A stretch of 64,000 bases of DNA, taken from Candidatus Binatia bacterium. GTDB taxonomy: Bacteria > Desulfobacterota > Binatia > UBA9968 > JAJDTQ01. The stretch spans positions 3,648,001 to 3,712,000 of the forward strand of contig OY762897.2 of NCBI GenBank assembly GCA_963666515.2, given 5' to 3'. Positions within the stretch are counted from its first letter, which is position 1, and each line of letters starts with the position of its first letter. Under the pieces are notes generated by a model that worked only from the letters and a program-made list of their open reading frames with translations, had not been told where the DNA came from and did no database searches. Made by a program: the position numbers and the translations under genes. Below, piece by piece: positions 3,923 through 62,618 of the stretch.

Positions 3923-3947
3923 TAGGGTCCTTCAACGCACGACTACT

Positions 3948-4802
3948 TCACTGTTCGTCTGCGGCGGGTTCGGAGTCCGGCGCCTTCCGGTCCCCTTCGG
4001 GAATGATCAGGAGCCGGCGGTAAGCGCCCTGGCCAAGGCTCTTGGTGGTGACCCAGGGGTCGTCCTTCAGCGCCAGATGAACGACGCGCCGGTCACGGGC
4101 GCTGAGGGCGTCGATCCCCTGGGTCTTGCGGCTGCGCTTGGCCTTCTCGCCCATGCGCAACGCCATGTCCTCCAGGGACCTCACGCGCCTCCCGCGGTAG
4201 TCTTCCGCGTCGACAACGGGCTGGGGTCCGTCCGAGCCGACCTTGTCGGCCACGATACGGCTCACGATGTGCTGGAGCGCCTCCAGGGTCTGACCCCGCC
4301 GTCCGATCAGCAGGGCGCCGCTGTCGCCTTGTATGTCGAGGACGAACTCCGTCGAGCCGGTGCCGGGCTTGACCGCCACCTTCGCGGACACGCCCATGAG
4401 GCGGAGTATCTCGGAGAGCACATCCACGCCCACCTTGCGGGCCTCCGCCAGGCGCTCTTCGGCCTCCGCGGGGTCTTCGGGAGCCTCTTCTTCGGGAGCG
4501 AGTCCTTCGGACGAGGGCTCCTCGGACGCGTCCTCCGCGAAGACCGCCTCTTCCGCGGCCGGCGCCGCGGCTTCCTTCGCCGGCGCCTCGGCGTCGGCCG
4601 GCCCTTCCTCCGGCGCGACCGCGACGGCCTCCCGGACGGTGGCCCGGACCCGTGCGTTCTGGCGGCCGAAACCCAGCACGCCCACCTTTTCCTCCGCCAG
4701 GATGTCCAGGGATACCTTGTCCCGCTCCACCCCAAGCAGGTTCAGCGCCTTGGTGATGGCTTCGTCAAGGGTCTCTCCTTCCGTCTCGACTTGCTTCATC
4801 AC
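3948..4802 (-). CDS. jag: RNA-binding protein Jag/EloR (Jag_N, KH, R3H)
   Basis: KH motif LLIGRRGQTLEALQ, R3H motif RRVVHLAL, position downstream of yidC. Confidence 0.93.
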   Translation of the reverse strand: MMKQVETEGETLDEAITKALNLLGVERDKVSLDILAEEKVGVLGFGRQNARVRATVREAVAVAPEEGPADAEAPAKEAAAPAAEEAVFAEDASEEPSSEGLAPEEEAPEDPAEAEERLAEARKVGVDVLSEILRLMGVSAKVAVKPGTGSTEFVLDIQGDSGALLIGRRGQTLEALQHIVSRIVADKVGSDGPQPVVDAEDYRGRRVRSLEDMALRMGEKAKRSRKTQGIDALSARDRRVVHLALKDDPWVTTKSLGQGAYRRLLIIPEGDRKAPDSEPAADEQ

Positions 4803-4853
4803 AAACCTCTCCTCCGCGGAGCGCCACGGGCCGGCGCCGTCGGGCGCAGTCCG

Positions 4854-6500
4854 TCAACGCTCTTTTCGGTTGATCAAGTATTGTTGAAGGATGCTCAGCA
4901 GATTGTTGACGAACCAGTAGATCGTGAGCCCCGACGGGAAGCTCACGAAGATCACGGTAAAGATCAGCGGCATGAGCATCATCATGCGCCGCTGGTTGGC
5001 GTCGCCGATGGCCGGCGACATCCACTGCTGGATGAACATGCTCGCGCCCATGAGCAGCACCAGCACGGGAATGCCGACGTCGAAGCCGAAGGCCGAGAAC
5101 GGGAGCGACTCCCAGTCCGGACGCGACAGGTCCTTGATCCACAGGAAGCTCGCGTGACGCAACTCGATGGGCGTCAGCAGCGCGTTGTAGAAGCCGATGA
5201 AGAAGGGGAACTGCAGGAGCATGGGCAGACAGCTCCCGAACGGATTCACCTTGTTCCGCTTGTAGAGGTCCATCATCTCCTTGTTCAGCCGCTGCTTGTC
5301 TTCGCCGAACTTGTCCTTGAGCCGCTGCATCTGCGGCTGGAGCTTCTGCATCCGTTTCATGGAGACGAAGCTCTTCTGGGTCAGCGGCCACAGCAGCAGC
5401 TTGATGATGAGCGTGAGCAGGATGATGTCGAGACCGTAGTTCCCGGTGTACGTCTGAAAGAAATGCAGCGCCTGGAGCATCGGCACCGAGATGAAGGCGA
5501 AGTAGCCGAAGTCGATGGACTCCTCGAGGCCGCGGTCGAAGGACTCCAGCAGGCTCAGCACCTTGGGTCCCATGAAGAGCCGGTAGCGGGCAGCGGGCTC
5601 CCCGCTCGAAAGGACCCGGCCGCGGGTTTCCATCACGAAGCCCCGGTCCCGGCCGGTAGCGGGCGCCACGGTCGCGTCGGCCTCCAATCCGTCCGCGGGG
5701 ATGAGCGCGGAAACGAAGTAGGTGTATCCGAAAGCCGTCCACGTCAGCGGCGCGTTCAGGTTGAGCCGGGTTTCGATGTCGTCCGGCCATTCGCGGGTGA
5801 CCTCCCCCTCGCGCAGCGCGATCACTCCCTCGAACAGGGCATCCTTCTTGACGCCCTTGGACTCGCCGCTGGTGGTGAACAGCAACACGGCGCCCTGCCC
5901 CGACCCGCCGATCGACACGCCGACCTCCACGGCATGGCTGGAACCGTTGAAGGTGAACTCCTTGACCACGCGGCGGCCCGACGGCGTCGAGCCGGCGAAG
6001 GTGAGCCTCCCGTCACGGCCCGCCCCGAGGTTCAGGTCGCCGCCCCGGACCTGGTAGACGATGCCCTGATCGGTGCCGGAGGGCGTGTCGTCCAGGCGGA
6101 GCCCCAGGGGATATTCCATCCCCGGTCCCTGGGAAACCATCTCGATCAACGGGCTGCCGGCCTCCACCCCGGCACGGTAGCGCTTCAGGCGAAAGCTCTT
6201 GATGCGGGCTCCCTGGTTGGTGAACCGCGCGATGTAGTCGGGGGTCTCCACGGTAACGTCCCGCACCGGGACGGCCGGGACCTTCCGGGCAGTCGCGACC
6301 GCAGGCGCCGCCGGGGCCGCGGCGGGCGCCGGCTGCTGAACCGGGGCCACCGCCGGAGCCGGGGCCGCCTTCCCTGGCCTGGAGGCCGTTTCCTCTTTCG
6401 CGGGGGGCTGCACCGGCGGATAGAACCGCCTCATGTACTCCTGGTACAGGATGATGATGAGGATCGAGACGATGACTGCTATGAAGGCTCGCTTTTCCAT
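4854..6500 (-). CDS. yidC: Membrane protein insertase YidC
   Basis: GNYGLDIILLT, SMKRMQKLQP, NPFGSCLPMLLQFP, PSGLTIYW. Confidence 0.97.
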   Translation of the reverse strand: MEKRAFIAVIVSILIIILYQEYMRRFYPPVQPPAKEETASRPGKAAPAPAVAPVQQPAPAAAPAAPAVATARKVPAVPVRDVTVETPDYIARFTNQGARIKSFRLKRYRAGVEAGSPLIEMVSQGPGMEYPLGLRLDDTPSGTDQGIVYQVRGGDLNLGAGRDGRLTFAGSTPSGRRVVKEFTFNGSSHAVEVGVSIGGSGQGAVLLFTTSGESKGVKKDALFEGVIALREGEVTREWPDDIETRLNLNAPLTWTAFGYTYFVSALIPADGLEADATVAPATGRDRGFVMETRGRVLSSGEPAARYRLFMGPKVLSLLESFDRGLEESIDFGYFAFISVPMLQALHFFQTYTGNYGLDIILLTLIIKLLLWPLTQKSFVSMKRMQKLQPQMQRLKDKFGEDKQRLNKEMMDLYKRNKVNPFGSCLPMLLQFPFFIGFYNALLTPIELRHASFLWIKDLSRPDWESLPFSAFGFDVGIPVLVLLMGASMFIQQWMSPAIGDANQRRMMMLMPLIFTVIFVSFPSGLTIYWFVNNLLSILQQYLINRKER

Positions 6501-6506
6501 GGATAC

Positions 6507-6728
6507 TTACGGGACCGGGTCGTACCCGCCGTCGGTGAGCGGATTGCAACGCAGAAGCCGCCAGGCGCCGAGGCCAAGCCCCTTCACGACGCCGTGACGG
6601 CGCACCGCCTGCAACGCGTAGGCGGAGCAGGTCGGATAGTACCGGCAGCAGCGCGGCAGCAGCGGCGAAAGAAAGCGCTGGTAGGCCCTGATGGGGATCT
6701 GCACGGCGGTACGGGCGATGGTGTTCAT
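6507..6728 (-). CDS. yidD: Membrane protein insertion efficiency factor YidD
   Basis: [28 protein letters not shown]. Confidence 0.96.
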
Positions 6729-7394: not shown

Positions 7395-8390
7395 TCAGTC
7401 CGCCTCCGCCTTCTGGGTGCGGCCCATGAGGTCGCGGACAGCCTGCATGGGGGCTTTGTCCTCGTAGAGGACACCGTACATCTGCTCCACAATGGGCATC
7501 TCGACTCCATGCCGCCGGGCCAGGAGGTGGACGGTGCGGGTGTTGCGGATGCCCTCGGCGACCATCCGGGTTCCCGCGACGATGTCTGCGAGCCGGCGTC
7601 CCTGGCCCAGGTCGAAGCCGACCTTGCGGTTGCGGCTCAGTTGGCCGGTGCAGGTGAGCACGAGGTCGCCGAGGCCCGGAAGTCCGGCGAGCGTCACCGG
7701 ATCGGCGCCCATCTTCACCGCCAGACGGGTCATTTCCGCCAGCCCGCGGGTGATGAGCGCGGCCCGGGCGTTGTGCCCGAGTTCCAGGCCGTCGCTGACT
7801 CCGGCGGCGATGGCGATGACGTTCTTGATCACGCCGCCCATCTGCACTCCCAGGACGTCTGTTGACGTATAGACCCGGAATTCCGGGGAACCGAGGCTTT
7901 GCTGCACCTCGGCCGCGGCGTTGTGGTCGGTGCTCGCCACGGTGATGGCGGCCGGCCGGCCCTGTGCCACCTCCAGGGCGAAAGTGGGGCCGGAGAGGAA
8001 GGTGTGACGTCGGGAGTTGCCCAGCACCTCCGCCAGCACATCGCCCATGGTCATCAGCGTCGACTCCTCGATTCCCTTGGAGCCGCACGCCACGATGACT
8101 TCGGGCGCCACGAACGGCGCGGCCCGGCTCATGACCTCACGCAGGAAATGGGACGGGGTCACACAAATAAGCAGGTCCCGGCCGGATGCCGCGGCTTCCA
8201 GAGAATCGGTGACATCGAGGCGGTCAGGCAGCTTGACGCCGGGCAGGTAGACGGCGTTCTCGCCGGCCTCCCGGATCCGCGCGAGGGTTTCCGCGGAGTG
8301 GCACCACATGGCCACGTCGTCGTGTTTCCTGCACAGCAGCACCGCCAGGGCCGTGCCCCAGCCGCCAGCGCCTATGATGCCGATGGACAT
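7395..8390 (-). CDS. gpsA: NAD(P)H-dependent glycerol-3-phosphate dehydrogenase
   Basis: GAGGWGTALA, SKGIE, SGPTFA, KNVIAIAAG, GDLVLTC..SRN. Confidence 0.96.
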   Translation of the reverse strand: MSIGIIGAGGWGTALAVLLCRKHDDVAMWCHSAETLARIREAGENAVYLPGVKLPDRLDVTDSLEAAASGRDLLICVTPSHFLREVMSRAAPFVAPEVIVACGSKGIEESTLMTMGDVLAEVLGNSRRHTFLSGPTFALEVAQGRPAAITVASTDHNAAAEVQQSLGSPEFRVYTSTDVLGVQMGGVIKNVIAIAAGVSDGLELGHNARAALITRGLAEMTRLAVKMGADPVTLAGLPGLGDLVLTCTGQLSRNRKVGFDLGQGRRLADIVAGTRMVAEGIRNTRTVHLLARRHGVEMPIVEQMYGVLYEDKAPMQAVRDLMGRTQKAEAD

Positions 8391-8455
8391 TCCGGGAATC
8401 CGGAGAGTTTTGGGCCTGACCGAGTCGTCAGGACAAATTCCAGTGTCCTGCCCGG

Positions 8456-10924
<2,469 letters not shown>

Positions 10925-45739: not shown

Positions 45740-47086
45740 ATGAAAATCCCACCATCCCCACCGGGCTACGAGGACATCCTGTTGAACCTCAAGGACCCCA
45801 CTCAAGTGAGGCGGATGGCGGAGATCCTTGTAAACGGAGGGGTTGGAGCGGCGCATGGCGGGCAATATCGGCACTGGGAAAGCTTGAGACATCTCCGGCC
45901 TCCGGAAGGACTCTCCTCCGAGGAGTGGTGGGCCGCGGTCAAACTCGCACGCCGCCAACTTCGAAGGACCATCCCACTGGAGGACAAGGACGGACGGCCG
46001 TTCGCCTACACCCTCGCGGACCCAGTACTTGAACTCCTCCACGAAATCCATCGCGACACGAGCAGCAGGATTACGACAAGTGACCAGATAGGCAATCCAC
46101 AAACCAGGGAGAGATTCATCGAGAGTTCCCTGATAGAGGAGGCCATCACTTCGAGCCAGCTTGAAGGGGCGTCCACGACGCGCGAGGCCGCGAAGCAGAT
46201 GATCCGCTCCGGCCGAAGTCCGGTGGATCGAAGCGAGAGGATGATCCTCAACAATTATCGGGCCATCCGCCTCATCAAGAACTTCAAGGACGAACCCTTG
46301 ACCCCGGACATCATCTTCCAGATTCACAGGATGCTTGTTGGTGGCACATTGGACACGGTAGCCGGATCAAACTACCTGAGAAGGCCGGGAGACGGCATTG
46401 CGGTCTATCACGACGCTGACGGGACCTTGCTCCACATCCCGCCGCCCGCGAAGGAAATCAGGCGCCGAATGGCTGCCATGTGCGATTTCGCGAACCGGAG
46501 ACAACCTGACGCCTTCCTGCACCCGATACTCAAGGCCATCATCCTGCATTTCTGGCTTGCCTATGACCATCCGTTTGTCGACGGCAACGGCAGGACCGCG
46601 AGGGCGTTGTTTTACTGGTCGGCGCTCTCAGATGATTTCTGGATGTTCGAGTTTCTCTCGATTTCGAGGATAATTCGGAAAGCCCCGGCCCGGTACGGGC
46701 GGTCGTTCCTCTACACCGAGACCGACGAGAATGACCTGACCTACTTCATTCTGGCGCAACTCCAGGTCATACGACGCGCGATGGATATCCTGTACGCTTA
46801 CCTTGACAAGAAGGCTCTGGAAATCCGCACCATTGAGCAGATCATCCGCTCTTCCGTTTCGATAAACCATCGACAACTCGCCCTCCTGGGACATGCCCTG
46901 CGACACCCTGGCGTGCGCTATACGATCGCGGGCCACAAAAAGACCCATGGCGTCACGTACCAGACCGCCAGGACCGACCTCCTCGAACTTGCCTCCCGGG
47001 AACTGCTTGACAAGACCAAGACGGGGCGTTTCTTCAGCTTCACGGCCCCCAACGACTTGGCGAAGAGGCTTCAGGCATGGTCCTAA
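45740..47086 (+). CDS. Fic family protein with C-terminal HTH
   Basis: Canonical HPFVDGNGRTAR motif, inhibitory SSQLEG motif, C-terminal YQTARTDLLEL helix. Confidence 0.94.
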   Translation: MKIPPSPPGYEDILLNLKDPTQVRRMAEILVNGGVGAAHGGQYRHWESLRHLRPPEGLSSEEWWAAVKLARRQLRRTIPLEDKDGRPFAYTLADPVLELLHEIHRDTSSRITTSDQIGNPQTRERFIESSLIEEAITSSQLEGASTTREAAKQMIRSGRSPVDRSERMILNNYRAIRLIKNFKDEPLTPDIIFQIHRMLVGGTLDTVAGSNYLRRPGDGIAVYHDADGTLLHIPPPAKEIRRRMAAMCDFANRRQPDAFLHPILKAIILHFWLAYDHPFVDGNGRTARALFYWSALSDDFWMFEFLSISRIIRKAPARYGRSFLYTETDENDLTYFILAQLQVIRRAMDILYAYLDKKALEIRTIEQIIRSSVSINHRQLALLGHALRHPGVRYTIAGHKKTHGVTYQTARTDLLELASRELLDKTKTGRFFSFTAPNDLAKRLQAWS

Positions 47087-49130: not shown

Positions 49131-50135
49131 ATGAAGTTCAGCATCCAGCTTCCCACCTGCACCGAGGGCCTCGTGAACCCGGTCCCGTTCGTGGCGCCGG
49201 ACGACTTCATCCGCATGGCGCAGGAAGCCGAGCGGCTCGGCTACGACGCCGTGTGGGGCAACGACCACGTCACCCCGGCGTCCTACGCGCGGCAGAAATG
49301 GCCGGAGCCGCCCAACTTCTACGAGGTGCTGGTGACCCTGGCCGCGGTCGGCGCCCGCACCACCCGCATCCGGCTGGGCACGGCCGTGCTCGTGCTGCCG
49401 CTGCGCGACCCGGTGCTGCTGGCCAAGCAGGTGAGCACCCTGGACCGCTTCACCAACGGCCGGGTCATCCTGGGCACCGGCATCGGCGCCTACCGGGAGG
49501 AGTTCGACGCCCAGTGGCCGCGGCGGAAGGCCGAGCGGCGCGGCGACCTGCTGGACGAGAGCCTGGCGGCGCTGCAATGCCTGTTCCGGGACACGGACGC
49601 CACCTACGAGAGCCGGCACATCGCCTTCCGGCACATCGCCATGCGCCCCAAGCCGCTGCAGGACCCGCTGCCCATCTTCGTGGGCGGACACAACGAGGCC
49701 ATGATCCGGCGCGCGGCCCGGCTCGGCCAGGGGTGGCTGCCGGGCTGGCGGCCCTTCGAGCAGATCGTCGAGCGCGTGGCATTGCTACGCAGGCTGACGG
49801 AGGAAGCCGGACGGGAACCCAGAGCGGTAGAGGCATGCTCCCAGTTCACCCTGTGCATCGGCAAGACCGTGGAGGAGGCGCGGGCCCGCTACCGCAGCAC
49901 CGGCATGGTCCAGCACCGGGTGTCCCTGGCGCACACCGGCCGAGACCCGGCCCTGGCCGAGACCCACAACCTCATCGGCAGCCCGGCCAGCATCCTGGAG
50001 CAGGTGGCGTTCCTGGACAAGGCCGGCATCGACCACATCTGCGCCTTGCAGTTCCCCTCGGACACGGGCGCGGAGATGCTGGAGCAGATCCAGTGGCTGG
50101 CCGAGGAGGTCATGAAGCCGTTCAACGGAGGTTGA
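49131..50135 (+). CDS. LLM class flavin/F420-dependent oxidoreductase
   Basis: AERLGYDAVWGNDH, TTRIRLGTAV..RDPVLLAKQ, PKPLQDPLPIFVGG. Confidence 0.93.
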   Translation: MKFSIQLPTCTEGLVNPVPFVAPDDFIRMAQEAERLGYDAVWGNDHVTPASYARQKWPEPPNFYEVLVTLAAVGARTTRIRLGTAVLVLPLRDPVLLAKQVSTLDRFTNGRVILGTGIGAYREEFDAQWPRRKAERRGDLLDESLAALQCLFRDTDATYESRHIAFRHIAMRPKPLQDPLPIFVGGHNEAMIRRAARLGQGWLPGWRPFEQIVERVALLRRLTEEAGREPRAVEACSQFTLCIGKTVEEARARYRSTGMVQHRVSLAHTGRDPALAETHNLIGSPASILEQVAFLDKAGIDHICALQFPSDTGAEMLEQIQWLAEEVMKPFNGG

Positions 50136-50305: not shown

Positions 50306-51790
50306 TTGGCCACGGCCCACCACGATGTCAAGACGCTCGGTGCGTACTTCACGCCGGAGGTAGTGGCGGATGCCTTGGTGCGATGGGCCGTTCGCGACCC
50401 CGGCGACCTCCTGCTCGATCCATCGAGCGGCGATGGCCGCTTCGTTGCGCGTCATCCGAACAGCGTCGGCATCGAACGGGATCCGGCGTCGGTCGCACAA
50501 GCGTCCGTGCGGGCTCCGAATGCGACACTCGTAAACAGCGATTTCTTCACGTGGGTGTCTGACGACCACCGCCAGTTCGACTGCGCAGCCGGTAATCCTC
50601 CCTTCATTCGGTATCAGCGGTTCAGCGGCCCGACCCGGCAGGCCGCACTCGACTACTGCCGCCGCCTGGGCGTCATCTTCAGCGGCTTGTCGTCATCATG
50701 GGCGCCGTTCATCGTGGCGGCGGCCAGCAAGCTCCGCGCAGGCGGTCGGATCGCTTTCGTCGTACCGGCGGAGATCGGTCATGCGCCCTACGCCACGCCG
50801 CTCATGGACTACCTTCTGGCCAACTTCGGTTCCGTGCACGTGGTCGCCATCAGAGAAAAGATCTTTCCACGGCTCTCGGAGGACTGTTGGCTGCTGTTCG
50901 CAGACAGAGCCGGTTGTCAGGCGGACGGTATCCGTTTGTCGAAGCTCGAACGATTCGACCCCAGTGGCATACCGCCAGCGGTGTCGGAACTGATATCGGT
51001 CGAGGAGTGGCGTGTCGGATGGGGTGGCAGGCTGCGGCCGTTCCTGTTGCCGGCGCGCATCCGGAGCCTCTATCAGCGCATTACGACCGACTCCGGGACC
51101 GTCCGGCTCGGTCGAATCGCGCAGATCGGTATCGGATACGTGAGCGGCGCGAACCACTTCTTTCATCTGCGCCCTTCCGACGTGGAGCGCTTCCGGATAC
51201 CCGACAAATTCCTCGTGCCGTCGATCAGGAACAGCCGATACGTCACCGGCACCGAGATTAACGACGCTGACATCGAGCGGTGGACCGCGAAAAACGAGCC
51301 CGTGTTCCTTTTGCGAATCCCACCCCGCACACAGGTGCCCGCTACGGTCCAGGCGTATCTCGACACCGAGGAAGGGCATCGTGCCAGAGGCTCCTACAAG
51401 TGCCGCAACCGCAAACCATGGTACACCGTTCCCGACGTTCGGCGTCCTGCGTTTGTGCTCACATACATGAGCGGCAGATCCCCGACGCTCGTCGCGAATC
51501 GGAGCAGATGCACCTGCACGAATGCACTCTTGGCAGTCGATCTCCGGCCCGAACTGTTCAACGGTGGTAGCGACTTCTGCGGCCAACGACTGTCAGCAGC
51601 GTGGGGTTCACCCGTCGGGCGGCTGAGTTGCGAGATCGAAGGACATCCACTGGGGGGCGGGATGCTCAAGCTCGAGCCGGGAGAAGCGCGTAATGTGCTC
51701 CTGGCTCCGGACGCGGTGATCCAACAGCCTGATGCCGCGCTGCTCGACGAAGGTATCGAAATGATGCGCCAATGGAGGCACGTCGCGTGA
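50306..51790 (+). CDS. Type II N6-adenine DNA methyltransferase (gamma class)
   Basis: GAYFTP (motif X), LLDPSSGDG (I), GNPPF (IV), then TRD and C-terminal GGGMLKLEP. Confidence 0.92.
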   Translation: MATAHHDVKTLGAYFTPEVVADALVRWAVRDPGDLLLDPSSGDGRFVARHPNSVGIERDPASVAQASVRAPNATLVNSDFFTWVSDDHRQFDCAAGNPPFIRYQRFSGPTRQAALDYCRRLGVIFSGLSSSWAPFIVAAASKLRAGGRIAFVVPAEIGHAPYATPLMDYLLANFGSVHVVAIREKIFPRLSEDCWLLFADRAGCQADGIRLSKLERFDPSGIPPAVSELISVEEWRVGWGGRLRPFLLPARIRSLYQRITTDSGTVRLGRIAQIGIGYVSGANHFFHLRPSDVERFRIPDKFLVPSIRNSRYVTGTEINDADIERWTAKNEPVFLLRIPPRTQVPATVQAYLDTEEGHRARGSYKCRNRKPWYTVPDVRRPAFVLTYMSGRSPTLVANRSRCTCTNALLAVDLRPELFNGGSDFCGQRLSAAWGSPVGRLSCEIEGHPLGGGMLKLEPGEARNVLLAPDAVIQQPDAALLDEGIEMMRQWRHVA

Positions 51791-52680
51791 GTGCCTGCGA
51801 GTGGATATCGCTCAGGTCGGCCCTTGCCCACTTCGTCACGTTCCGCGGGGCGCCACAGAGCCAACGACACATCAAGCCGCTTCATTGGTACGTCGCCTGC
51901 AGGCTCGTCGTAGAAGGTGGATTCCACCCAGACGAGATCATGCCACGCCCGCCGTTCCGGGTGGACGAGAGCCGCAGACAGCCGGTGTTGATCCATGATC
52001 CGAGCCTCGGCGGTGCCGGTGAACGGACTGTCTACGGCGGTCTCAAGACCAAGGACGTAGACGTTGTCGTGACCAAGGAGGGGATCGGGCCGGTGCTCGC
52101 GGTCTCCTGCAAAGGGGCAATCGGTGCGTTCCGGAATCTCACGAATCGGATGGAAGAAGCGGTCGGCGACTGCACCAATCTTCACATCGCCTATCCGCCG
52201 CTCGTGTGCGGTTACTTGTTCATCATGCGGGCAAACCGCGCTGAGGAAATCGGGTTGGTCCGCCAACCGGAGTCATCGCAGCAGCCCGTTCGGCCGGTCG
52301 CGGAGAACGATGTGGCCCTTGACGAACGCGGCCAGCCAGTCGCGGCAGTTCGACGATTCCATGCGGCGCTTCGCGAATTGGCCGACAGACGCGGCATTCG
52401 AGACGACGTGAGCCGTTACGAAGCGATCTCACTCGCGCTCGCTTCGACCCGGCCGGAGGAGGTCGGAGAGATCGTCAACGAGTTCCCCGATCCAGGCAGT
52501 GCGCTACGGTTCGAACGGTTCTTCGAGACGGTATACCGACAATACGACGAACGATTCGTCTACGCCGCTCCCGACCTCAGGAAGGTGACGGCTCGCAAGG
52601 AGTGGGCGAAGGCGTCCGAAGCCTTCAGTACAACAACGCTGACCGACATGGACTACGAACCGAGAAGCCGCGAGTCTTGA
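51787..52680 (+). CDS. Putative type II restriction endonuclease (PaeR7I/XhoI-like)
   Basis: GTGA coupling to the MTase; KDVDVVV..AVSCKG..NLTNRMEEAVG. Confidence 0.72.
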   Translation: MSACEWISLRSALAHFVTFRGAPQSQRHIKPLHWYVACRLVVEGGFHPDEIMPRPPFRVDESRRQPVLIHDPSLGGAGERTVYGGLKTKDVDVVVTKEGIGPVLAVSCKGAIGAFRNLTNRMEEAVGDCTNLHIAYPPLVCGYLFIMRANRAEEIGLVRQPESSQQPVRPVAENDVALDERGQPVAAVRRFHAALRELADRRGIRDDVSRYEAISLALASTRPEEVGEIVNEFPDPGSALRFERFFETVYRQYDERFVYAAPDLRKVTARKEWAKASEAFSTTTLTDMDYEPRSRES

Positions 52681-52714: not shown

Positions 52715-53758
52715 ATGCCCGACATCCAGTTCGACCTCGGCTTCAGTTCGCGAACCGTCGCCGCCTACCCGCTGGCCCGGCGGGTGGCCATCATCAAGAG
52801 CGCGGAGGCGCTCGGCTTCGACCGCCTGTGGCATTCCAACGAAAAGTTCGGCCGCGACATGGTGGCCAACATGACCCTGAGCGCCGCCCACACTGAACGC
52901 ATCGGCATCGGCGCCGCGGTCACCGACCCCTACAGCGTCCACCCCTCCCTTACTGCCGCGGCCATGGCCACGGTGGACGACATCTCCTCCGGCCGCGTCA
53001 TCGTCGGCATCGGCGCCGGCGGCTCCGGCTTTCCCGCCATGGGCATCCAGCGGGAGCATCCGGTGGCGGCCACAGGGGACGCCATCGCCATCATGCGCGG
53101 CATGTGGGCCGGCAAGCCCGCGACCGTGGACGGAAAAGTCGTGAGCGTCCGGAGCGGGGTCCTGGGGTTCAAGGCCCGCGCCGACATCCGCATCGTGATC
53201 GCCACCCGCGGACCCGCGATGTTCCGCTTGGCCGGCCGAGTCGCCGACGGCGCCATGATCGCCACCATGGCTACCCCCGAGGGCGTCGGCATAGCCTGGG
53301 ATTTCGTGCGGCAAGGCGCGCAACAGGCCGGCCGCGACCCGGAAGATATCGAGATCATCTCGCGCGTCGACACCTGCGTGGACCGGGACCGCGATAAAGC
53401 CCGCGCCGGGGTCAAGCAGATGATCGCCTTCCTGTTGTGGAGCAGCTACCCCAACCGCGACTTCGTCACGCAGTTGGGCATGGAGGTTCCGGCCGAGTTG
53501 GAAGCCATAATCGCCAAGCGCGACTACGAACTAATGTTCGAGGCCGGCCCCCTCGTCCCCGAGGAGTTCGTCGACGCCTTCGCCTGGGCCGGCACCCCCG
53601 AGGAAGTCGCCGCCAAAATCACCCGCATCGCCGAAATGGGCATCCGCCGCTTCGGCACCTGGGTGCTCGCACCGCCGGGAGGGGGGATCGAGTCGGTGAT
53701 TCAGCTCATCGCCGAGGAGGTGATGCCGCGGGTGCGGGGAGGCGGGGACGGTGGATGA
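52715..53758 (+). CDS. LLM class oxidoreductase (Mer-like)
   Basis: AEALGFDRLW, TERIGIGAAVTDPY..HP, SSGRVIVGIGAG. Confidence 0.92.
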   Translation: MPDIQFDLGFSSRTVAAYPLARRVAIIKSAEALGFDRLWHSNEKFGRDMVANMTLSAAHTERIGIGAAVTDPYSVHPSLTAAAMATVDDISSGRVIVGIGAGGSGFPAMGIQREHPVAATGDAIAIMRGMWAGKPATVDGKVVSVRSGVLGFKARADIRIVIATRGPAMFRLAGRVADGAMIATMATPEGVGIAWDFVRQGAQQAGRDPEDIEIISRVDTCVDRDRDKARAGVKQMIAFLLWSSYPNRDFVTQLGMEVPAELEAIIAKRDYELMFEAGPLVPEEFVDAFAWAGTPEEVAAKITRIAEMGIRRFGTWVLAPPGGGIESVIQLIAEEVMPRVRGGGDGG

Positions 53759-56540
53759 AACGTTTGCTCACACCGACTACCGCCAACCTGTCGATATAGT
53801 GGAACATTGTCCATGCCTCGCATGGGCCGAACCTATATTGCGGACGCAACCGTATTGTGGAAACTCGCGGCAAGCCACCTCACTTCTATAGGATCAGGAA
53901 TGGTTCCACTCAATTCACCAGAACTCGACCGTCTCGCAAAATTCCTGGCGAAATACAACTTCCGATCTTCCGTCACGCAACTTGCTGGCCTTCTTACGGT
54001 ACCATCACTGCAGGCCAACACAATCCGCATAGAAACCGCCGTTCATCTAGCCGTCGCACATTGCCAAGGGCGCAACAAACCGGGGAAAACGGAGATTGGC
54101 CACTGGTTGAACCGGGAACTTGGCAATACAACGATTGCTCTTCTTGAGGATCCTGCCAACGACGTCTTCGTCACCAATATCGAAACGCCCAACGGCAATC
54201 GCCGTATCTTCGAAGGGATCTGGGAAACCAATGACTACTTCCTCCAGACTGTTCTCGACCTCCTATTGGGAGTCTCCCCGCAAAATGAACTCCAGAGTCT
54301 CATCAATCCCGTATTTGCTCTGCTAAGGCTAAGCGACTGCGTCGCCGAACGGGTCGGACTACAAAGATGGCACGCTGAACACTCCGATCCGAAAACCAAG
54401 ATCGATGTACCTGCTGCAAATGGAATGGCGGAACGAGCTCGCGCAGTAACGTTCTCAGACAACGACCTTGCCTCCTTGGAAATCGACCGTAATCTCTTAG
54501 AACCGTTTATTCTAAAAAGCCACGAAAGACAGATACTCACTACCGAAACGATCGGCAACACATCCCTCGAAAGACGTCCTCTTGTCGACTGTCGTGGCAC
54601 TCTAGTTCTAGCTTTGCCACACGCAGTTAGCCCTGCGATCCGCAGATACGTACTGTCTGAGCTCTTGCGCAAAGATCACCTGCCAAGTTTCGCTCGCGCT
54701 TTGGAAGACTTCCAAGCCCGACAAATTATGATGGAAGGCTTTCAAGAATTGAATACGGACATCGGGCCCCTGGACATCCCCGCGCCGTCTGACGAGAGAC
54801 CGAGACTTACAGACTGGTTATATAAGTATGACACCGACAAATACCTTCACGTAGTCTTGCTCCATGACCGGTTGGACCTGCTGGAGAAGGAAGGCCTGAC
54901 CAGTTTCATGCGATATCCACCACGACGAAGCAGGGCGTTTGACAACCATCTTCATGGGGTTGCCAACTATTGTGCTTCGTTGCCGGATTTTGGCGAAGGT
55001 ACCACACTACTGATATTGGGTGGGCTCGGCCGCGGCTTCGGCCTAAATTTCACAAAATTGCCAAATCGGTGGCATTCTTCTGTTATTCGGATATCGGACT
55101 TCCTCAACCTGGCCAAAACTCCCGATCTTCCGGTGACACACTATCTTAAGTTTCTTCGCCAGAAAGACCACCTGAAGGACGCGGGCGTCCGCTTTATGGA
55201 CGTCGAGGGTGACTTCAACCTCTACGGCTACTGGCATCAATCGGACTATCAGCTATTGCCCGTCGATCTCCCATTGGGTCCAGAGGCTTTAGTTGCCATA
55301 TGGCCTGACTTTGTTTTGTCGTCCCGACAAAAAGCTCGAAGACTTGTTGACGAGCATGTCACTCAAGATACAGAAGGCCACCACTTGCCCGTCAGGCGCT
55401 TTTTCCGCGAGGAGTTTTTCCGATCCCTAGAGGATCGGCCCATTTATGTGAGTATGCCCCATCTACAGGCCGGTGTACTTGCCGGCGTGGTGGAAACAAA
55501 GCACGGTCCATGTTGGTTGTCCGTGGGGGGATCTAGACTTCATAAGGGCGGTAGTCCTTTTGTTTTCAAGATGTGGCGCGGCTTCCTTGAACTATATGAC
55601 AGGCTCGCGGGCCAGCTTGAATCAAGCGGTCTGCCGATGACAACAGGCCCGCTAGAGATCCAACTCAACCTCTCCAACGTGCAAATGCCGGACAGCGACA
55701 GCAGCTCACAAGCCAACGCGACCAGCGAACCCCAGATCGTTGTCGACATCAACCGACGAACGGCGGTGATTGAGTTTTCGCCGAGTATGCTCCAGTCATT
55801 TCAACAACCGGAGAACTTCGGAGAACGATTCGTCCTCAGAAGCATCGCCCAGGCCCTCGTGAGACTCCGTAACGTGGTGGATATGGGTTGTGAAGTCAAG
55901 TTTGTGGAAATGCTCATAGACAACGTACTTGAAAAACCTGATATTCGAGTTCTTCACCTGTTGCCCGTGCATGACTCTGTTGACGGTTTACAACAGAGCA
56001 ATAGTCCACAGGCCATATTTGTAGCTCCCGAGGACCACGCTTTCGCTACCCTCGGGTTGTCCGAAGGCTGCATACCAACTCCGAATTCCACCGCAATCAC
56101 CGAAAAATCTGACTGCAACCGCTTCCTTCGCTCTGTCGTTGACAAAGTCTGGAGAGAAATACGTGACCGCCTGCGACAATTGGACCGTACATCTGTCATT
56201 TGTAAGTTGCTAAACGTGCATGAAGCTATTGGGCACGACAGAGACCATTGGAAGCGTACGGCACGGGCTCTAATTGCACTCTATGCGACCGGGGACGACG
56301 TTTTCGCCGTCGCGCGCGATCGTGAAGCAAAACGGGCCGTTGTCGGACTATCGTCGCGTACACTCCTGGAGATGGCCGTCTGTGAGTGTCCCGAAGTCGA
56401 TGGCCGTAATCTTTCACGCTGGGAACTTGACGATCTCCTGGCCAATACGACGTTAATGCTCGAAGCTGCCACGGGTTCGGACGCTATTGCCTATGACCTA
56501 GTCGAACCTCAAATACACTTACATTCAAATGGTCAATACA

Positions 56541-58205
56541 CCCGTCAGTTGCAAAACGCCCTCTTGAAGAGCCCGCTCAGGCCGTCCTACAAAGGCTCTC
56601 CGGTGTCATACGGCAAATAGCTCAGGCTCACCATCTGTGAAGCTAAGCCACAGCCGCCCGTGAGATAAAATCGAGGGGGGTTGTTGCGACATTTTTTCGA
56701 ACAAAACGAGGTGAGCTCAAGGATGTGGTCTCCGAAACTGATATAATCATCGTTGGTATCATCCCAATACCCGATGAAACGGAGACCACGAAATGAAACT
56801 TAGCAGAACCGCGGTTCGAGGTAAAGCCACGCTGGGCATGGAGGTTCGATTCGAGCCGCAGAAACTGACATCGTATTCGGGGCTCATCCTCTTTCAGTGC
56901 TTCTTTTCCCACCTGGGTCTCAAGGAGCGGCTGGGGCGGTGCTTCCGCCACCTGAAAGCCAATCCGATCTACGGTCACCACGTCGTGTTGCTGCTGCTGG
57001 TGGTGCATCTCATCATCGGACACCGACAGTTGCAAGACTTGGCGTACTACCGGGATGATGAACTGGTCCGGCGGTTGCTTGGGCTGAAACGCTTGCCGGA
57101 CGTGTCTACCGTGAGCCGCTCGCTGAAGAGTGCCGACGCGTGCAGCGTCGACAACGTCCGCGCCGAGTCGAGAACGGTGGTCATCGAGCGCCTGGTGGCC
57201 GAAGGTTTCGCGACTATCACCCTGGACTTCGACGGCTCGGTCTTGAGCACCGGGCGCCACGCCGAGGGCACCGCGGTGGGGTTCAACAAGAAGAAGAAAG
57301 GGGCGCGCAGCTACTACCCCCTGTTTTGCACCGTGGCCCAGACCGACCAGGTGCTCGACGTGCACCATCGGCCGGGAAACGTCCATGACTCCAAGGGCGC
57401 CGATGCCTTCATCCAGGGCTGTGTGTGCACCGTGCGCGCAAGCCTGCCCCGGGCCAGGATCGAGGTGCGCATGGACAGCGCCTTCTTCAGCAGGGATATC
57501 GTCGACCGGCTTCACTCCCTGGGTGTCACCTTCACCGTCTCGGTGCCCTTCGAGCGCTTGGCCGAACTGAAGGGGATGATCGAAGGCAGACAACGATGGC
57601 GGCCCATGGCCAATGGACTCGGCTACTTCGAGACCCGCTGGAAGCCCAAGTCCTGGAACACCCGCTATCGCTTCGTCTTCATCAGAAAACCCGTCCGATA
57701 CCAGGACAAGGAGGAAATCCAACTCGACCTCTTCAAGCCGGTCTCCCATGGGTACGAGTTCAAGGTCATCGTCACCAACAAGAGAATCCGCCCACGCAAC
57801 GTGGCGCTCTTCCACGAAGGACGGGGATCCCAAGAGGGTATCTTCGCCGAGTTGAAGTCCCACTGCCAAATGGGCTACGTGCCCGTCAAAACACGCGTCG
57901 GGAACCAGTTGTACATGTTCGCCAGCATCCTCGCTCACAACCTCACCCGCGAACTCCAGATGCGAATCCACCCCCGTGAGCGTTCCACCACAGCCAAGCG
58001 CCCCGCCCTGTGGTGCTTCCGCGAAATCGGAACCCTGCGCCGTACCCTCATTCAACGAGCCGGACGTATCATTCGCCCCGCCGGCAAGCTCATCCTGTCG
58101 ATGAATACCAATCCGAATCTCGAAGCAGAACTGCGTCACGCCCTCGCAGCCCTCACGCCCCGCGCCTGACTCTTAAATTCAGCCGTGGTTTTTGCAACAA
58201 TCGAG
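56541..58205 (+). mobile_element. IS1380-family insertion sequence (1665 bp)
   Basis: IRL CCCGTCAGTTGCAAAA; IRR reverse complement CTCGATTGTTGCAAAA; flanking direct repeat TACA at 56537-56540 and 58206-58209. Confidence 0.92.
56793..58169 (+). CDS. IS1380 family DDE transposase
   Basis: LTSYSGL, LDFDGS, YYPL, RMDSAFF, RGSQEGIFAELK. Confidence 0.94.
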   Translation: MKLSRTAVRGKATLGMEVRFEPQKLTSYSGLILFQCFFSHLGLKERLGRCFRHLKANPIYGHHVVLLLLVVHLIIGHRQLQDLAYYRDDELVRRLLGLKRLPDVSTVSRSLKSADACSVDNVRAESRTVVIERLVAEGFATITLDFDGSVLSTGRHAEGTAVGFNKKKKGARSYYPLFCTVAQTDQVLDVHHRPGNVHDSKGADAFIQGCVCTVRASLPRARIEVRMDSAFFSRDIVDRLHSLGVTFTVSVPFERLAELKGMIEGRQRWRPMANGLGYFETRWKPKSWNTRYRFVFIRKPVRYQDKEEIQLDLFKPVSHGYEFKVIVTNKRIRPRNVALFHEGRGSQEGIFAELKSHCQMGYVPVKTRVGNQLYMFASILAHNLTRELQMRIHPRERSTTAKRPALWCFREIGTLRRTLIQRAGRIIRPAGKLILSMNTNPNLEAELRHALAALTPRA

Positions 58206-59410
58206 TACACAATGGACAGAAATTTCTACAAGGCAGTCATGAGTCCGTTTTTGGCAGCCTATAATCGAGAAGCATTCGAGACTGCAGCCCAAGACTACAA
58301 CAAGCTGTATCGGAGCGAAGCCTTCGGCAAACGGACGCCGGTGGAAGAAGTATATTCTATGGAGTTGATTGAAGCGTTTCAGACTGAATACAGTTTGCCG
58401 GTAACCGCGGCCGTGGAGGGGTGTTCAGAACTCCTTGATTTAGCGGTTGAGCGCAACAGCATCGTCGTAGAGACAACGCTGGGTACTATCAAAGATCGGC
58501 TAACTTCGGCCCGCGGTCTATCCCATGAGGCAGTGGAGGCCTTTGTTCGTACCTTCAGCTTGACCCATCGTAGGTCTTGGGAAGAGCCGCCGCCAGGCTT
58601 CGAGCCGAAGGACATCTATCCATGGCGGTTTAGTCGGCGACTCTCGTATGTAACCCGGCCTTTACTTGTGTTCGGGAAACAAAACACGGATAAGGTGCTG
58701 TTCGCTGTCGGAGCACTGCGCGTCGGAATCGCCTACTTACTGGACAAGATTGAACAAGGCCATTTTTCGCAGGACTTCTTCAAATCAAAACACATGCGAC
58801 GATATATCGGGAAGGTCAACAACCAGAAGGGTCATGCCTTTGCGCAAGCAGTTTCGGCAGAAATGAGAAAGACCGGATGGTCTACGCGGGTTGAGGTGCA
58901 GATGACGGAACTAGGTGGTCCAGCTCAACTTGGCGATCTGGACGTCCTGGCCTGGAAGGCAAACGGAGAGATTCAGGTCATCGAATGCAAGCGCTTACAG
59001 TTTGCTCGAACGATTGGAGAAGCCGCCAGTGTCTGTAAACGCTTCCGTGGCGAGGCCAAGGATGAGTTGGCCAAGCACGTACGGCGCACCGACTGGATCA
59101 GGGGTAACCCCGCGAGCCTTCGCCATGTAGTCGGTTTCATACCAGATGCTGGCGGCATTGATCACCGCCTCGTAACCAACGTACCTGTTCCCATGACCTA
59201 CTTGACGTCACTACCTATCCAGGCGGACAAAATTGGTCCATTGAAATCCGACCTGTAGAAGTCTGGTCGCTCAGCCATGTGCGATGAAACATAATTTGGT
59301 GCTGCGGTAAACCGCCAACGCAAATGGACTTGGGCAAACCCCAAGCCGATCGTTCCGCGGCAACAGATCGGGGTCCGATTCTCCCCCTTAATTGGGGATT
59401 CAGGCCTGAA

Positions 59411-59821
59411 CTAAACCGGCAGGGTACTTACCTGGACGCGATGAGCCGCGCGGATGAGATCCTTGTCCAGCGTCGCCAAGGGCAACCGCCGGCGCACGGC
59501 GAGCTCGAGATAGGCCGCGTCGTAGGTGGTCAGGCCTTCATTTCGGGCAAGCGTCAGTATTTCCCGGAACGCCCGGCTTTCGGTTTCCGTGTCGGTAACG
59601 ATGGGAGAACGGTCCAGCAGGTCAAGGTAGTCTGCGATCTGTGCAGCGGTTATGCGGTTGAGTCGTTCCGCCCTTGCCAGTACATTGCCAAGCTCCAAAC
59701 GCCAGAGCGCGGGAACCAGCGCTCCCGAGTCTTTCAGGCGGTCCAGCAATTCGTCTGTCTGCGGCGTGAACTCGTCCTCGAAGAGCCAGGCGACGGTAAT
59801 GGAACAGTCCAGCACGAACAT
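59411..59821 (-). CDS. VapC PIN-domain toxin
   Basis: VLDCS, E in WRLEL, LTTYDAAYLELA, LATLD. Confidence 0.93.
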   Translation of the reverse strand: MFVLDCSITVAWLFEDEFTPQTDELLDRLKDSGALVPALWRLELGNVLARAERLNRITAAQIADYLDLLDRSPIVTDTETESRAFREILTLARNEGLTTYDAAYLELAVRRRLPLATLDKDLIRAAHRVQVSTLPV

Positions 59822-59824
59822 CGG

Positions 59825-60064
59825 TTACCGCCGCCCTTCATCGCGCAGCTTCTTCCAGTCCAGGCCTCCGAGCTTCAGACCGGACCGGAGGCTGCGAATG
59901 CCTTCGATCACGCGTTCCGTCGCTATCCGTTGCGCTTCCCCGGCGGCTACGAGGCGAGCTACGGGCACACCGCGCCGGGTGATGAGCACTTCCTCTCCCT
60001 GGGTGACCTTGTCGAGCAGCGACGACAAACGCGTCTTCGCCTCGAACGCGCCGACTTCGATCAT
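59825..60064 (-). CDS. Phd/YefM family antitoxin
   Basis: MIEVGAFEAKTRLSSLLDKV..GEEVLITRRGVPVARLV, with SD upstream of ATG 60064. Confidence 0.93.
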   Translation of the reverse strand: MIEVGAFEAKTRLSSLLDKVTQGEEVLITRRGVPVARLVAAGEAQRIATERVIEGIRSLRSGLKLGGLDWKKLRDEGRR

Positions 60065-60077
60065 GCGTCCTACTCCA

Positions 60078-60091
60078 ATCAACTAGTTGAT
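60078..60091. promoter_or_regulatory. Probable VapBC operator
   Basis: Perfect palindrome ATCAACTAGTTGAT just downstream of a TATACT -10 box (60098-60103, minus strand). Confidence 0.7.
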
Positions 60092-60225
60092 CAGACCAGT
60101 ATAGTCCACGACGGCGATTACGCAACCTCGTGGTTGCGTCTCAAGCCATCCGCCCCCGCGCCCGAAGGAAACACCGAAAGGACCCTTCAGGTAGTTGATC
60201 AACCACTGCTTTCCATGAACTCCGT

Positions 60226-60858
60226 TCAGCAGAAATTCTGTGTGAAATATACCTCGCCGTCCTTCGCAACGGCGACGCCGATGCCTGTCCTGTCGTAAGA
60301 TGCGTTCTGGATATTTTTGCGGTGTTCCTTGCGTTCCATCCAGACCTTCACTGCTTCCTGAGCCAGTCCTTCCGGAGTAAACCAGTCACGCGACACGATC
60401 CTGCCGTTGACCGCTCTATACCTGCCGAACAGCGGCACTGCGGCAAGGTTTTCGCCGAGGCCGTAGGTGTAGTAGGAGCCGTAATCCTTGCGGCAGTCAT
60501 ATCCTCCCTTCTGCGCTCTGTCCGTGGCGTTGCGGCCTTCGGGACTGTTGTGACCGAAGTAGTTCCGGGCCGCCATGTCTTCGCTGTGTGAGCGGGCAAT
60601 CAGCCTGATCTCGTCAATGTGTTCCAATGGTTGCAAACCACGCTTGACGCGTTCGGCATTGACCAATTCGTGTGTCCTTTTTTCCAGTCGGCGCGTGTCT
60701 ATGGAAGGTCTTGCAGTGGTGGTCAGCGGCGGGGTTGCAACTGCGAAGGGTGAACCGGATCGAGGGGATTGGGCCGTCTCCGGCGCGCTCCCACAGCCGA
60801 CGACAAGAACCGTTGCGAGCACCCGGAGAGGCCCATTCAGGTAAACCTGCCTTCTCAT
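60226..60858 (-). CDS. CAP (SCP) domain lipoprotein-like protein
   Basis: Lipobox-like VVGC, VNAER, ARSHSEDM, GENL, WMERKEHRKNI, YFTQNFC. Confidence 0.9.
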   Translation of the reverse strand: MRRQVYLNGPLRVLATVLVVGCGSAPETAQSPRSGSPFAVATPPLTTTARPSIDTRRLEKRTHELVNAERVKRGLQPLEHIDEIRLIARSHSEDMAARNYFGHNSPEGRNATDRAQKGGYDCRKDYGSYYTYGLGENLAAVPLFGRYRAVNGRIVSRDWFTPEGLAQEAVKVWMERKEHRKNIQNASYDRTGIGVAVAKDGEVYFTQNFC

Positions 60859-61987: not shown

Positions 61988-62296
61988 CTATCCCTGTTTC
62001 GACGGGGCAGGTTCAAACTCGACCCGTACGCGGTAGCCCAGCACTCGTGCATATTCTTCCACGGTGACAAGCCGCGGGGAAACCTCACTGTTCACGCTTT
62101 CGAGCCTCGATATATTGCTCTTTTTGGTCCCTAGAAGTTCGGCCATTTGCTTTTGGGTTTTGCCTGCGGCCGTACGTATGGCGATCATGTTCCGCTTCAT
62201 GGCAAAAGCTGGGGCGGCTTCATCGTAGGCGGCCTTTACGGCAGTGTTTTTCAGTGCCTTGCGCTTAAAATCCCTGAATGTGGGTCGGTCAGCCAT
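61988..62296 (-). CDS. XRE-family HTH antitoxin (HigA-like)
   Basis: RTAAGKTQKQMAELLGTKKSNISRLES. Confidence 0.9.
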   Translation of the reverse strand: MADRPTFRDFKRKALKNTAVKAAYDEAAPAFAMKRNMIAIRTAAGKTQKQMAELLGTKKSNISRLESVNSEVSPRLVTVEEYARVLGYRVRVEFEPAPSKQG

Positions 62297-62618
62297 TTTC
62301 CGTTACCTCCTCCATACGCTTGCGCGCCAAGGCCAAGTGCTTTTTCGGAATCTTCTGCGTTTTCTTGATGAATGTGTGCAGGATCACAAGTTCCTGCCCC
62401 TTGTGTGTACAAAACAGCGACCGGCTGATCCCTTCGGGGCCTTTGGCCCTGATTTCAAACAAGCCTTCACCTAACGGCGCGGTGTGAGGGCGGCCGATTG
62501 AAGGGCCGAACTCTTCCACCAGTTCGATGATGTGCAGCAGATTTGCCAATATTCCAGCGGGCAGCTCCAATGTCTGGTTCTCGACCTTCTCACTATAAAA
62601 TGTAACCCTCCACGCCAT
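62289..62618 (-). CDS. RelE/ParE (Gp49/HigB-like) toxin
   Basis: GRPHTAPLGEGLFEIRAKG, ILHTFIKKTQKIP; toxin-first gene order. Confidence 0.92.
   Translation of the reverse strand: MAWRVTFYSEKVENQTLELPAGILANLLHIIELVEEFGPSIGRPHTAPLGEGLFEIRAKGPEGISRSLFCTHKGQELVILHTFIKKTQKIPKKHLALARKRMEEVTENG

Follow-up and report, generated by a model that had tools for sequence, protein, structure and literature searches.

The stretch of DNA described here, referred to as the window, is 64,000 nucleotides long and comes from Candidatus Binatia bacterium (assembly GCA_963666515.2, contig OY762897.2, positions 3,648,001 to 3,712,000 of the forward strand). Two open reading frames (ORFs) on its forward strand, 53807..56620 (937 amino acids) and 58185..59258 (357 amino acids), are the halves of one gene, which is split by an insertion sequence (IS) of the IS1380 family. 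The gene belongs to the family of Upx, a single-protein anti-phage defence system. All positions below are window positions, and the features of the locus are collected in Table 1.

One gene and its insertion sequence

When 1669 nt are excised (the IS, 56541-58205, together with one TACA copy), the downstream ORF falls in frame with the upstream ORF, as follows from arithmetic on the coordinates. The frame restored from the ATG at 53900 is 3690 nt long (1229 codons and a stop). An earlier reading of the window, made from its sequence only, had proposed both that the two ORFs are one gene and that this excision yields a 3690-nt frame; both proposals proved correct, the second from the start at 53900. 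The join also exists in nature. The protein P0004, which is the top match when the N-terminal half (911 residues) is used as the sole query, is a natural uninterrupted allele of 1258 amino acids that is 98% identical to the window gene. Across the junction it reads ...HSNGQYTMDRNFYKAV..., the same as the predicted join (the longer stretch spanning the junction is ...LHSNGQYTMDRNFYKAV...). The two alleles align with zero indels and differ at 16 of 909 residues of the N-terminal part and at 0 of 350 residues of the C-terminal part. The comparison reveals no further stops or frameshifts in either part of the gene, and the IS is its sole lesion. The window locus and P0004 thus form a natural interrupted and uninterrupted pair of one defence gene.

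Of 8000 candidates scored in the protein search with the N-terminal half, 190 reached E<=1e-3; the list holds the best 120 of them. The homologues do not occur only as two separate proteins, for 115 of the 120 listed are single polypeptides of 1012-1260 amino acids. The other five are 903-948 amino acids long; four of them lie on contigs shorter than 6 kb and one on a 13.7-kb contig.

Upstream of the ATG at 53900 there are two other in-frame starts, the ATG at 53813, which is the start used in the P0004 record, and the TTG at 53807. The likeliest true start appears to be the ATG at 53900, because the family consensus opens at the corresponding Met (M30 of P0004; conservation of at least 90% across 107 sequences), and because an AGGA is located 7 nt upstream of it. 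The start at 53813 is probably an over-extension.

The 16 amino-acid differences between the two alleles are unevenly distributed. All of them lie upstream of the IS (53813-56539) and none downstream (58206-59255), where about six would be expected in 350 residues at the upstream rate. A faster-evolving sensor, or a recombination breakpoint near the insertion site, could be the cause. Strongly conserved residues are changed in the window allele at E455K (E in 100 of 106 sequences) and D888G (D in 94 of 106), and in P0004 at R254S (R in 79 of 106) and G612A (G in 90 of 106). Set against family conservation as a test of decay, the 16 differences show no clear asymmetry between the alleles.

The insertion is a real transposition event, with a transposase, terminal inverted repeats and a 4-bp target-site duplication. 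The transposase matches NCBIfam NF033539 (transpos_IS1380, 'IS1380 family transposase') over model positions 2-418 of 419 with 239.6 bits, the cut-off being 180, and Pfam PF13701 (DDE_Tnp_1_4) with E=1.7e-41. In its length of about 1.67 kb, its one transposase ORF, its short inverted repeats and its 4-bp duplication the element resembles the IS1380 family, of which this size and this duplication are typical. A 5-bp duplication, TACAC instead of TACA, is equally possible, since bases 56541 and 58210 are both C; the restored sequence is unchanged by this choice. A cluster of 20 member sequences that are 99% identical to the transposase protein exists elsewhere. A recent insertion fits these observations, because the IS is the sole lesion and its transposase looks intact and has such close relatives.

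The transposase group is very abundant (6062 proteins at E<=1e-50 among 8000 candidates scored), and many of the listed relatives lie on contigs of 1.5-3 kb, as expected for a multi-copy element that breaks assemblies. The 25-nt left end of the IS is found only once in the window, so that no second copy is seen there, and a megablast search with the IS against 72,556 plasmid records gave no match. A 498-aa antisense ORF in the IS has no Pfam match and is taken for a shadow ORF of GC-rich DNA.

Copies of insertion sequences are a classic cause of assembly mis-joins, and the IS might have been joined wrongly into a gene that is intact in the real genome. The short contigs of its relatives have the size of collapsed repeats, and an intact allele does exist elsewhere. 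However, both junctions lie in one contig and show a perfect 4-bp duplication and complete inverted repeats, which are the signature of transposition and not of a chimeric join. The window allele and P0004 are also different molecules, because 16 of their residues differ. An artefact of this kind is extremely improbable.

Relation to Upx

The two halves of the gene match the same Upx models one after the other. On the PADLOC model PDLC02221 ('Upx', 1271 positions), the N-terminal half covers positions 41-903 (E=7.1e-116) and the C-terminal half positions 910-1252 (E=1.9e-54). On the NCBIfam model NF042954 ('anti-phage protein Upx', Upx_antiphage; 1240 positions), the halves cover positions 22-887 (434.5 bits) and 894-1223 (202.2 bits). 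They abut collinearly on these models, with neither loss nor overlap. The intact P0004 covers positions 22-1223 of the 1240 of NF042954 with 651.1 bits (E=2.4e-195); its homology to Upx is certain. When P0004 was compared with all Protein Data Bank (PDB) chain sequences by phmmer, the single match was 9wuf_A (1272 amino acids), over residues 48-1204, with E=3.4e-113; the C-terminal part of the window gene alone matches the same chain with E=1.1e-39. The entry 9WUF is the cryo-EM structure of the Upx protein of Salmonella enterica, SeUpx (PMC13099982). The name Upx stands for 'uncharacterized PD-(D/E)xK defence protein', and the system was first described by Gao et al. (Science 2020, as cited in PMC13601566).

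The sequence-only reading had called the gene an orphan without a named family. This label does not stand, since both halves match the Upx profiles end to end, P0004 matches 9WUF, and a full-length match to a known defence protein thus exists. The rest of that description fared better. The absence of ATPase, helicase and methyltransferase motifs from the approximately 1000 residues preceding the nuclease agrees with the Pfam scan, which, in the copy used (one that lacks PF28173.1), found zero families in either half. The proposed single-gene anti-phage system with a large sensor and a nuclease effector is right by homology to Upx.

A new, unnamed single-gene nuclease defence system, unrelated to the described families, would fit the empty Pfam scan and an NCBIfam score that is below the curated cut-off. 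It has next to no chance of being correct. The end-to-end collinear homology to the Upx profiles, the match to 9WUF and the conservation of the Upx catalytic residues all speak against it, and so does the precomputed Pfam accession PF28173.1, which is present on all 120 listed homologues and absent from the Pfam copy used. The PADLOC and NCBIfam Upx matches, together with the 9wuf_A alignments, refute it.

The nuclease lies at the C-terminus. According to PMC13099982, the PD-(D/E)xK core of SeUpx comprises residues 1121-1272 and its active site D1161, E1176 and K1178. In the window gene, the motifs GHAF, GDLDVLAW and IECKR, which had been noticed earlier as a PD-(D/E)xK core in the last 150 or so residues, occur at residues 209, 243 and 259 of the C-terminal part and align with the SeUpx active site. 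The alignment pairs GDIDLLAW of SeUpx with GDLDVLAW of the window, and VIECK with VIECK. Judged from this alignment, all three catalytic residues of SeUpx are kept in the window gene, where they correspond to D1154, E1168 and K1170 in P0004 numbering.

Two sets of relatives were used for measuring conservation. The alignment A1 holds 107 of the 120 listed homologues; the 13 left out are 12 shorter proteins (903-1186 amino acids) and P0011. As its members were collected with the N-terminal half as the only query, they are unselected for the C-terminal motif, and conservation among them is 90% or higher at each of D1152, D1154, E1168, C1169 and K1170. A profile search of representative genome contigs with A1 gave 137 confirmed stretches, of which the best 80 were kept, corresponding to 79 loci. 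The broader alignment of 66 sequences consists of P0004 and of ORFs from 65 of the 79 fetched loci. These ORFs were chosen by a length of at least 1000 amino acids and a D...ExK pattern close to their end, which makes the C-terminal conservation in this set circular, and it was not used.

An AlphaFold2 model of the C-terminal part of the window gene (350 residues), computed from a 65-row alignment of this part and 64 of the 65 locus segments (L050 was left out), has a mean predicted local distance difference test (pLDDT) of 91.2 and a predicted template modelling score (pTM) of 0.85. A Foldseek search of the PDB with this model has 9wuf as its sole match at E<=1e-3 (E=2.1e-19, query TM-score (TMq) 0.61, 28% identity), and a nuclease fold of the C-terminus, whose absence would have spoken against the proposed effector, is thereby supported. 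Weak matches follow (E no better than 3.8e-3); they include R2 retrotransposon proteins, the Pyrococcus repair endonuclease 2vld, Card1, the archaeal Hjc and XisH, all of which we take to be restriction-endonuclease-like folds. The fold similarity to Upx applies to these C-terminal 350 residues, and the likeness of the N-terminal 880 residues is one of sequence.

The window gene is thus like Upx in being a single polypeptide of about 1230-1270 residues with end-to-end homology and no nucleoside triphosphatase (NTPase) domain, in its C-terminal D...ExK catalytic residues and in its defence-type neighbourhood. It differs in an Asn that replaces the Asp of the N-terminal 'DxR' motif, in a score below the cut-off and in the interruption by the IS.

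Table 1. Features of the interrupted Upx-family locus and of its surroundings (window positions)
Feature	Positions	Strand	Remarks
SoFic-like Fic protein	45740-47083		PADLOC SoFic, 133.5 bits; about 7 kb upstream of Upx
Paralogous LLM-class F420-type oxidoreductase genes	49131-50132, 52715-53755		flank the methyltransferase and the 302-aa ORF
Eco57I-like type II methyltransferase	50306-51787		PADLOC MTase_II, 288 bits
302-aa ORF	51772-52677		overlaps 3' end of methyltransferase; no Pfam, PADLOC or NCBIfam match
5' part of Upx-family gene	53900..56540	+	codons 1-880 from ATG 53900; ends with left TACA; matches the N-terminal domain, the middle domain and the first ~200 residues of the C-terminal domain of SeUpx
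Asn codon (N129 of P0004)	54197..54199	+	pairs with SeUpx Asp127 in the phmmer alignment to 9wuf_A
Left target-site duplication	56537..56540	.	TACA
IS1380-family insertion sequence	56541..58205	+	1665 bp, GC 59.2%
Terminal inverted repeats	~56541-56556 and 58190-58205		imperfect; left end CCCGTCAGTTGCAAAA against reverse complement of right end CTCGATTGTTGCAAAA, 12 of first 16 positions match
IS-encoded tail of truncated N-terminal fragment	56541..56620	+	26 codons and stop (56618-56620); tail ..RQLQNALLKSPLRPSYKGSPVSYGK*
Transposase gene	56793..58169	+	458 aa, apparently intact
Downstream ORF as listed	58185..59258	+	opens at GTG within right end of IS
Right target-site duplication	58206..58209	.	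TACA, identical to left copy
3' part of Upx-family gene, including stop	58210..59258	+	last 349 aa; contains PD-(D/E)xK core
GDLDVLAW	58932..58955	+	second Asp (58941-58943) aligns with catalytic D1161 of SeUpx
IECKR	58980..58994	+	Glu 58983-58985 aligns with SeUpx E1176, Lys 58989-58991 with SeUpx K1178
324-aa ORF	59324-60295	+	overlaps VapC/Phd pair; no family match
PIN/VapC toxin and Phd/YefM antitoxin	59414-60082	-
Gp49 (HigB-like) toxin and helix-turn-helix antitoxin	61991-62618	-

Proposed sensor, nuclease and the state of the interrupted copy

Two papers of 2026, by Zhou et al. (PMC13099982) and by Evans et al. (PMC13601566), describe the biology of Upx. According to Zhou et al., SeUpx is a monomer that consists of a domain at the N-terminus (NTD, residues 1-515), a middle domain (MD, 516-714) and a C-terminal domain (CTD, 715-1272). 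It acts on single-stranded DNA (ssDNA) as a Mg-dependent 3'-5' exonuclease and protects E. coli from phage PhiV-1. Its defence is lost on deletion of the NTD or the CTD and on mutation of E1176/K1178 or D127/R129. No single domain or partial construct protected in that work, and the isolated CTD retains partial ssDNA nuclease activity. Zhou et al. describe the NTD as a second, minimal nuclease that is unlocked by the phage protein gp16, with a site composed of D122, D127, R129, E147 and D173, in which Asp127 is the Asp of the 'DxR' motif. They regard the defence as direct and not abortive.

Evans et al. report that diverse phage large terminases trigger SeUpx, HpUpx and PbUpx alike through their ATPase domain. 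SeUpx and HpUpx both defend against PhiV-1 (PMC13099982, PMC13601566); according to Evans et al., gp16 did not trigger the toxicity of either protein and the terminase did. The substitution E1176A removes both defence and toxicity (PMC13601566). In AlphaFold 3 models the unfolded ATPase core of the terminase is accommodated in the N-terminal sensor by beta-augmentation, and the authors favour programmed cell death as the outcome. HpUpx is 16% identical to SeUpx, and homologues as divergent as this are counted as Upx and are shown to defend; Supplementary Data 5 of that paper lists 2093 Upx homologues, and the published Upx tree has 895 representatives. The two papers thus disagree on the trigger and the outcome, and they concur on the architecture and on the requirement for the C-terminal nuclease.

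By combining this information with the restored gene, it is possible to describe how the intact form might work. The protein, of 1229 residues if translated from the Met at 53900, is one polypeptide in which about 1,100 residues without an NTPase, helicase or methylase domain are followed by the C-terminal PD-(D/E)xK nuclease. By homology to those Upx proteins that have been tested, the sensor that binds a phage protein would be the large N-terminal and middle region, and this phage protein, if Evans et al. are right, would be the ATPase domain of the large terminase. This binding would license the C-terminal Mg-dependent nuclease, and degradation of DNA would then halt the infection. The result would be either death of the infected cell, as Evans et al. 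propose, or direct removal of phage DNA intermediates by a 3'-5' ssDNA exonuclease, as Zhou et al. propose. The same logic, in which a large sensor recognizes the terminase and activates a fused effector, is found in Avs1-3, the antiviral STAND NTPases, which are the other known sensors of this phage protein (PMC13601566). Unlike Avs, Upx has no STAND NTPase and, according to that paper, neither sequence nor structural homology to Avs. No STAND NTPase was found in the window gene by Pfam, or in its neighbours by a scan of 19 ORFs.

The N-terminal 'DxR' site of SeUpx is not matched in the window gene. In the high-confidence part of the P0004/9wuf_A alignment, from which the pairing was read, the SeUpx residues D122, D127, R129, E147 and D173 correspond to E124, N129, R131, D149 and D175 of P0004. 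The equivalent of D127 is thus Asn, and this Asn is invariant in all 107 sequences of A1. Among the 66 sequences of the broader alignment, 43 have Asn at this position, 16 have Asp and 7 have a different residue or a gap. The D122 position is scattered over 18 residues in the broader alignment, with Glu in 9 sequences and Asp in 1. An Asn at a catalytic Asp position in most of the family favours, as far as aligned sequences can indicate, a sensor role over a conserved N-terminal nuclease. The 'DxR' site may not define the Upx family, the N-terminus being treated as a sensor by Evans et al.

These positions bear directly on the dispute between a dual nuclease that is activated by gp16 and a terminase sensor with one nuclease. 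If the intact window protein were a dual nuclease of the kind described by Zhou et al., gp16 would unlock its 'DxR' exonuclease and the cell would obtain direct immunity, not terminase-triggered death. The biochemistry and the growth curves of SeUpx (PMC13099982) point in this direction, and R131, D149 and D175 match R129, E147 and D173 of SeUpx conservatively. The Asn found throughout A1, the minority of Asp in the broader set, the unconserved D122 position and the reported failure of gp16 to trigger SeUpx or HpUpx, for which the terminase was effective (PMC13601566), all argue against it, and such a dual nuclease is unlikely here. A sensor with a single C-terminal nuclease agrees better with these residues. 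It can be suggested tentatively, with the odds rather against the suggestion, that a large and phylogenetically widespread clade of Upx consists of a pure sensor and a single C-terminal nuclease, and that the dual nuclease is peculiar to the enterobacterial branch. If this were true, the dual-nuclease model would not be the way in which the family works. The knock-out by the IS would then record the cost of a terminase-triggered suicide nuclease, for example through a conflict with a resident or incoming prophage, and the frameshifted or truncated Upx genes at 7 of the 79 loci would be traces of this cost as well.

In terms of P0004 the IS separates codons 909 and 910, a position that aligns with about residue 906 of SeUpx. 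The insertion point is therefore inside the CTD, with the nuclease core about 200 residues downstream. The upstream product, if made, would consist of 911 Upx residues and 26 IS-encoded residues and would have no nuclease. The downstream 349 residues hold the whole nuclease core but lack an obvious start; the GTG at 58185 and the ATG at 58212 are the sole candidates. A consensus scan of 53300-59700 for promoter-like sites found 2, compared with 2.7 expected by chance, and none near the right end of the IS (58100-58250). The interrupted copy is most likely inactive, because no partial construct of SeUpx protected. Disruption by an IS may fit a costly gene, as the sequence-only reading proposed.

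Alternatively, the interrupted locus might still work, either as a two-piece Upx in which the sensor and the nuclease fragments are both made, or as a source of free nuclease with another role. Production of the nuclease fragment would then require read-through from the transposase gene or a start at the GTG at 58185 or the ATG at 58212. Several features would allow this: the transposase gene is co-oriented with Upx and stops 16 nt short of the GTG at 58185, neither fragment has additional stops or frameshifts, and the isolated CTD of SeUpx has partial ssDNA nuclease activity (PMC13099982). On the other side, single polypeptides of 1012 residues or more account for 115 of the 120 listed homologues, and the right end of the IS has no promoter-like site. 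Furthermore, no individual domain or partial construct of SeUpx was protective (PMC13099982), and the cut falls inside the CTD and not at a domain border. A working locus in two pieces is very improbable.

The window gene is most readily read, with a probability of about 0.9, as a chromosomal single-protein anti-phage gene of the Upx family that is interrupted by an IS1380-family element and most likely inactivated. Besides the possibility of a mis-assembly, which was considered above, the following points weigh against this reading: 1) P0004 scores 651.1 bits on NF042954, below the equivalog cut-off of 1900 bits; 2) the identity of the C-terminal part to SeUpx is only about 28% (312 aligned columns); 3) of the tested Upx proteins SeUpx, HpUpx and PbUpx, only SeUpx was compared with the window gene; 4) the equivalent of D127 is Asn, though Zhou et al. 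report that D127A/R129A loses defence; 5) the presumed loss of function is drawn by analogy from truncation experiments on SeUpx, which is a different protein.

The first of these points also concerns annotation. With a score below the cut-off, the NCBI rule would not name P0004 Upx, and the model seems to be tuned to close relatives of the enterobacterial protein. It is plausible that automatic annotation misses the gene, as the sequence-only reading had supposed, considering the score of the intact allele (651 against 1900 bits) and the lack of the family model in the Pfam copy used, and routine annotation would probably call such genes hypothetical. Even the intact allele is unrecognized by the standard naming rules, and Upx is therefore probably under-counted in environmental genomes. 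The Upx family and its sensor and nuclease design were already known, and what is new here is a member interrupted by an IS in an uncultured high-GC bacterium.

Neighbourhood and relatives

The gene is richer in AT than its host, as had been remarked from the sequence. Its two parts have a GC content of 52.3%, whereas the window has 64.7% and bases 1-45000 have 66.2%. The values are 59.2% for the IS, 58.3% for the Fic gene and 53.7% for the HigBA-like pair (61991-62618). The restriction-modification (R-M), Fic and two toxin-antitoxin modules that had been named as neighbours were all located (Table 1). The 302-aa ORF may be the cognate restriction enzyme of the methyltransferase. For this ORF a protein-atlas look-up returned only 'hypothetical' clusters (0.97), with endonucleases of the PaeR7I/XhoI type as a weak lead (0.89). 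The 324-aa ORF is probably spurious. No Avs-like gene is present among the 19 neighbouring ORFs scanned, and no tRNA genes that could mark the borders of an island are present in the window.

The rest of the window codes for an AcrB-type pump, YidC, Jag, GyrA, GyrB, enzymes of the shikimate pathway, the ATP synthase operon, ParAB, RsmG, MnmG and MnmE. The gene set of positions 1-40000 (yidC, jag, gyrA, gyrB, parA, parB, rsmG, mnmG, mnmE and ATP synthase) is typical of a replication-origin region. The defence patch is therefore chromosomal and does not belong to a plasmid or a prophage.

The best of the 79 loci is only 55% identical, and the species of the window is therefore absent from the representative genomes searched. 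The hosts of these Upx genes come from many phyla, which include Binatia, Latescibacterota, Gamma- and Betaproteobacteria, Clostridia, Nitrospira and Acidobacteriota. The flanks were scanned against PADLOC with 127 ORFs of at least 180 amino acids from 11 loci (out of 163 ORFs from 14 loci, L018-L020 being left out). At 7 of the 11 loci a flanking ORF within about 10 kb of Upx matches a PADLOC model with at least 200 bits, which is a raw count without a background control. The neighbourhood check suggested in the sequence-only reading thus gives a picture consistent with defence islands, and it does not amount to a measured enrichment.

In L002, a type III R-M system and a Snf2/HKD protein flank Upx, and L006 and L015 carry methyltransferases. 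The two reverse transcriptases of L003 could represent group II introns. In L010 (2198-9635), from a metagenome-assembled genome of Nitrospira, Upx (2996-6670) is positioned between hsdS and hsdR of a type I R-M system. L008 has a type I R-M system and L012 has GajA and a type III R-M system; in both, a SoFic gene (7747-8790 and 8619-9830, respectively) adjoins Upx. The flanks of L001, L007, L014 and L017 have only weaker PADLOC matches. The proximity of SoFic and Upx in the window and in these two of the 11 loci may be a recurring association, or may reflect shared membership in defence islands.

At 7 of the 79 loci (L021, L026, L034, L042, L049, L050 and L056), tblastn with P0004 reveals frame changes, internal losses or missing N-terminal parts of Upx in the middle of a contig, a count given without a baseline. 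These seven degraded copies may be further natural knock-outs, or they may be assembly errors.

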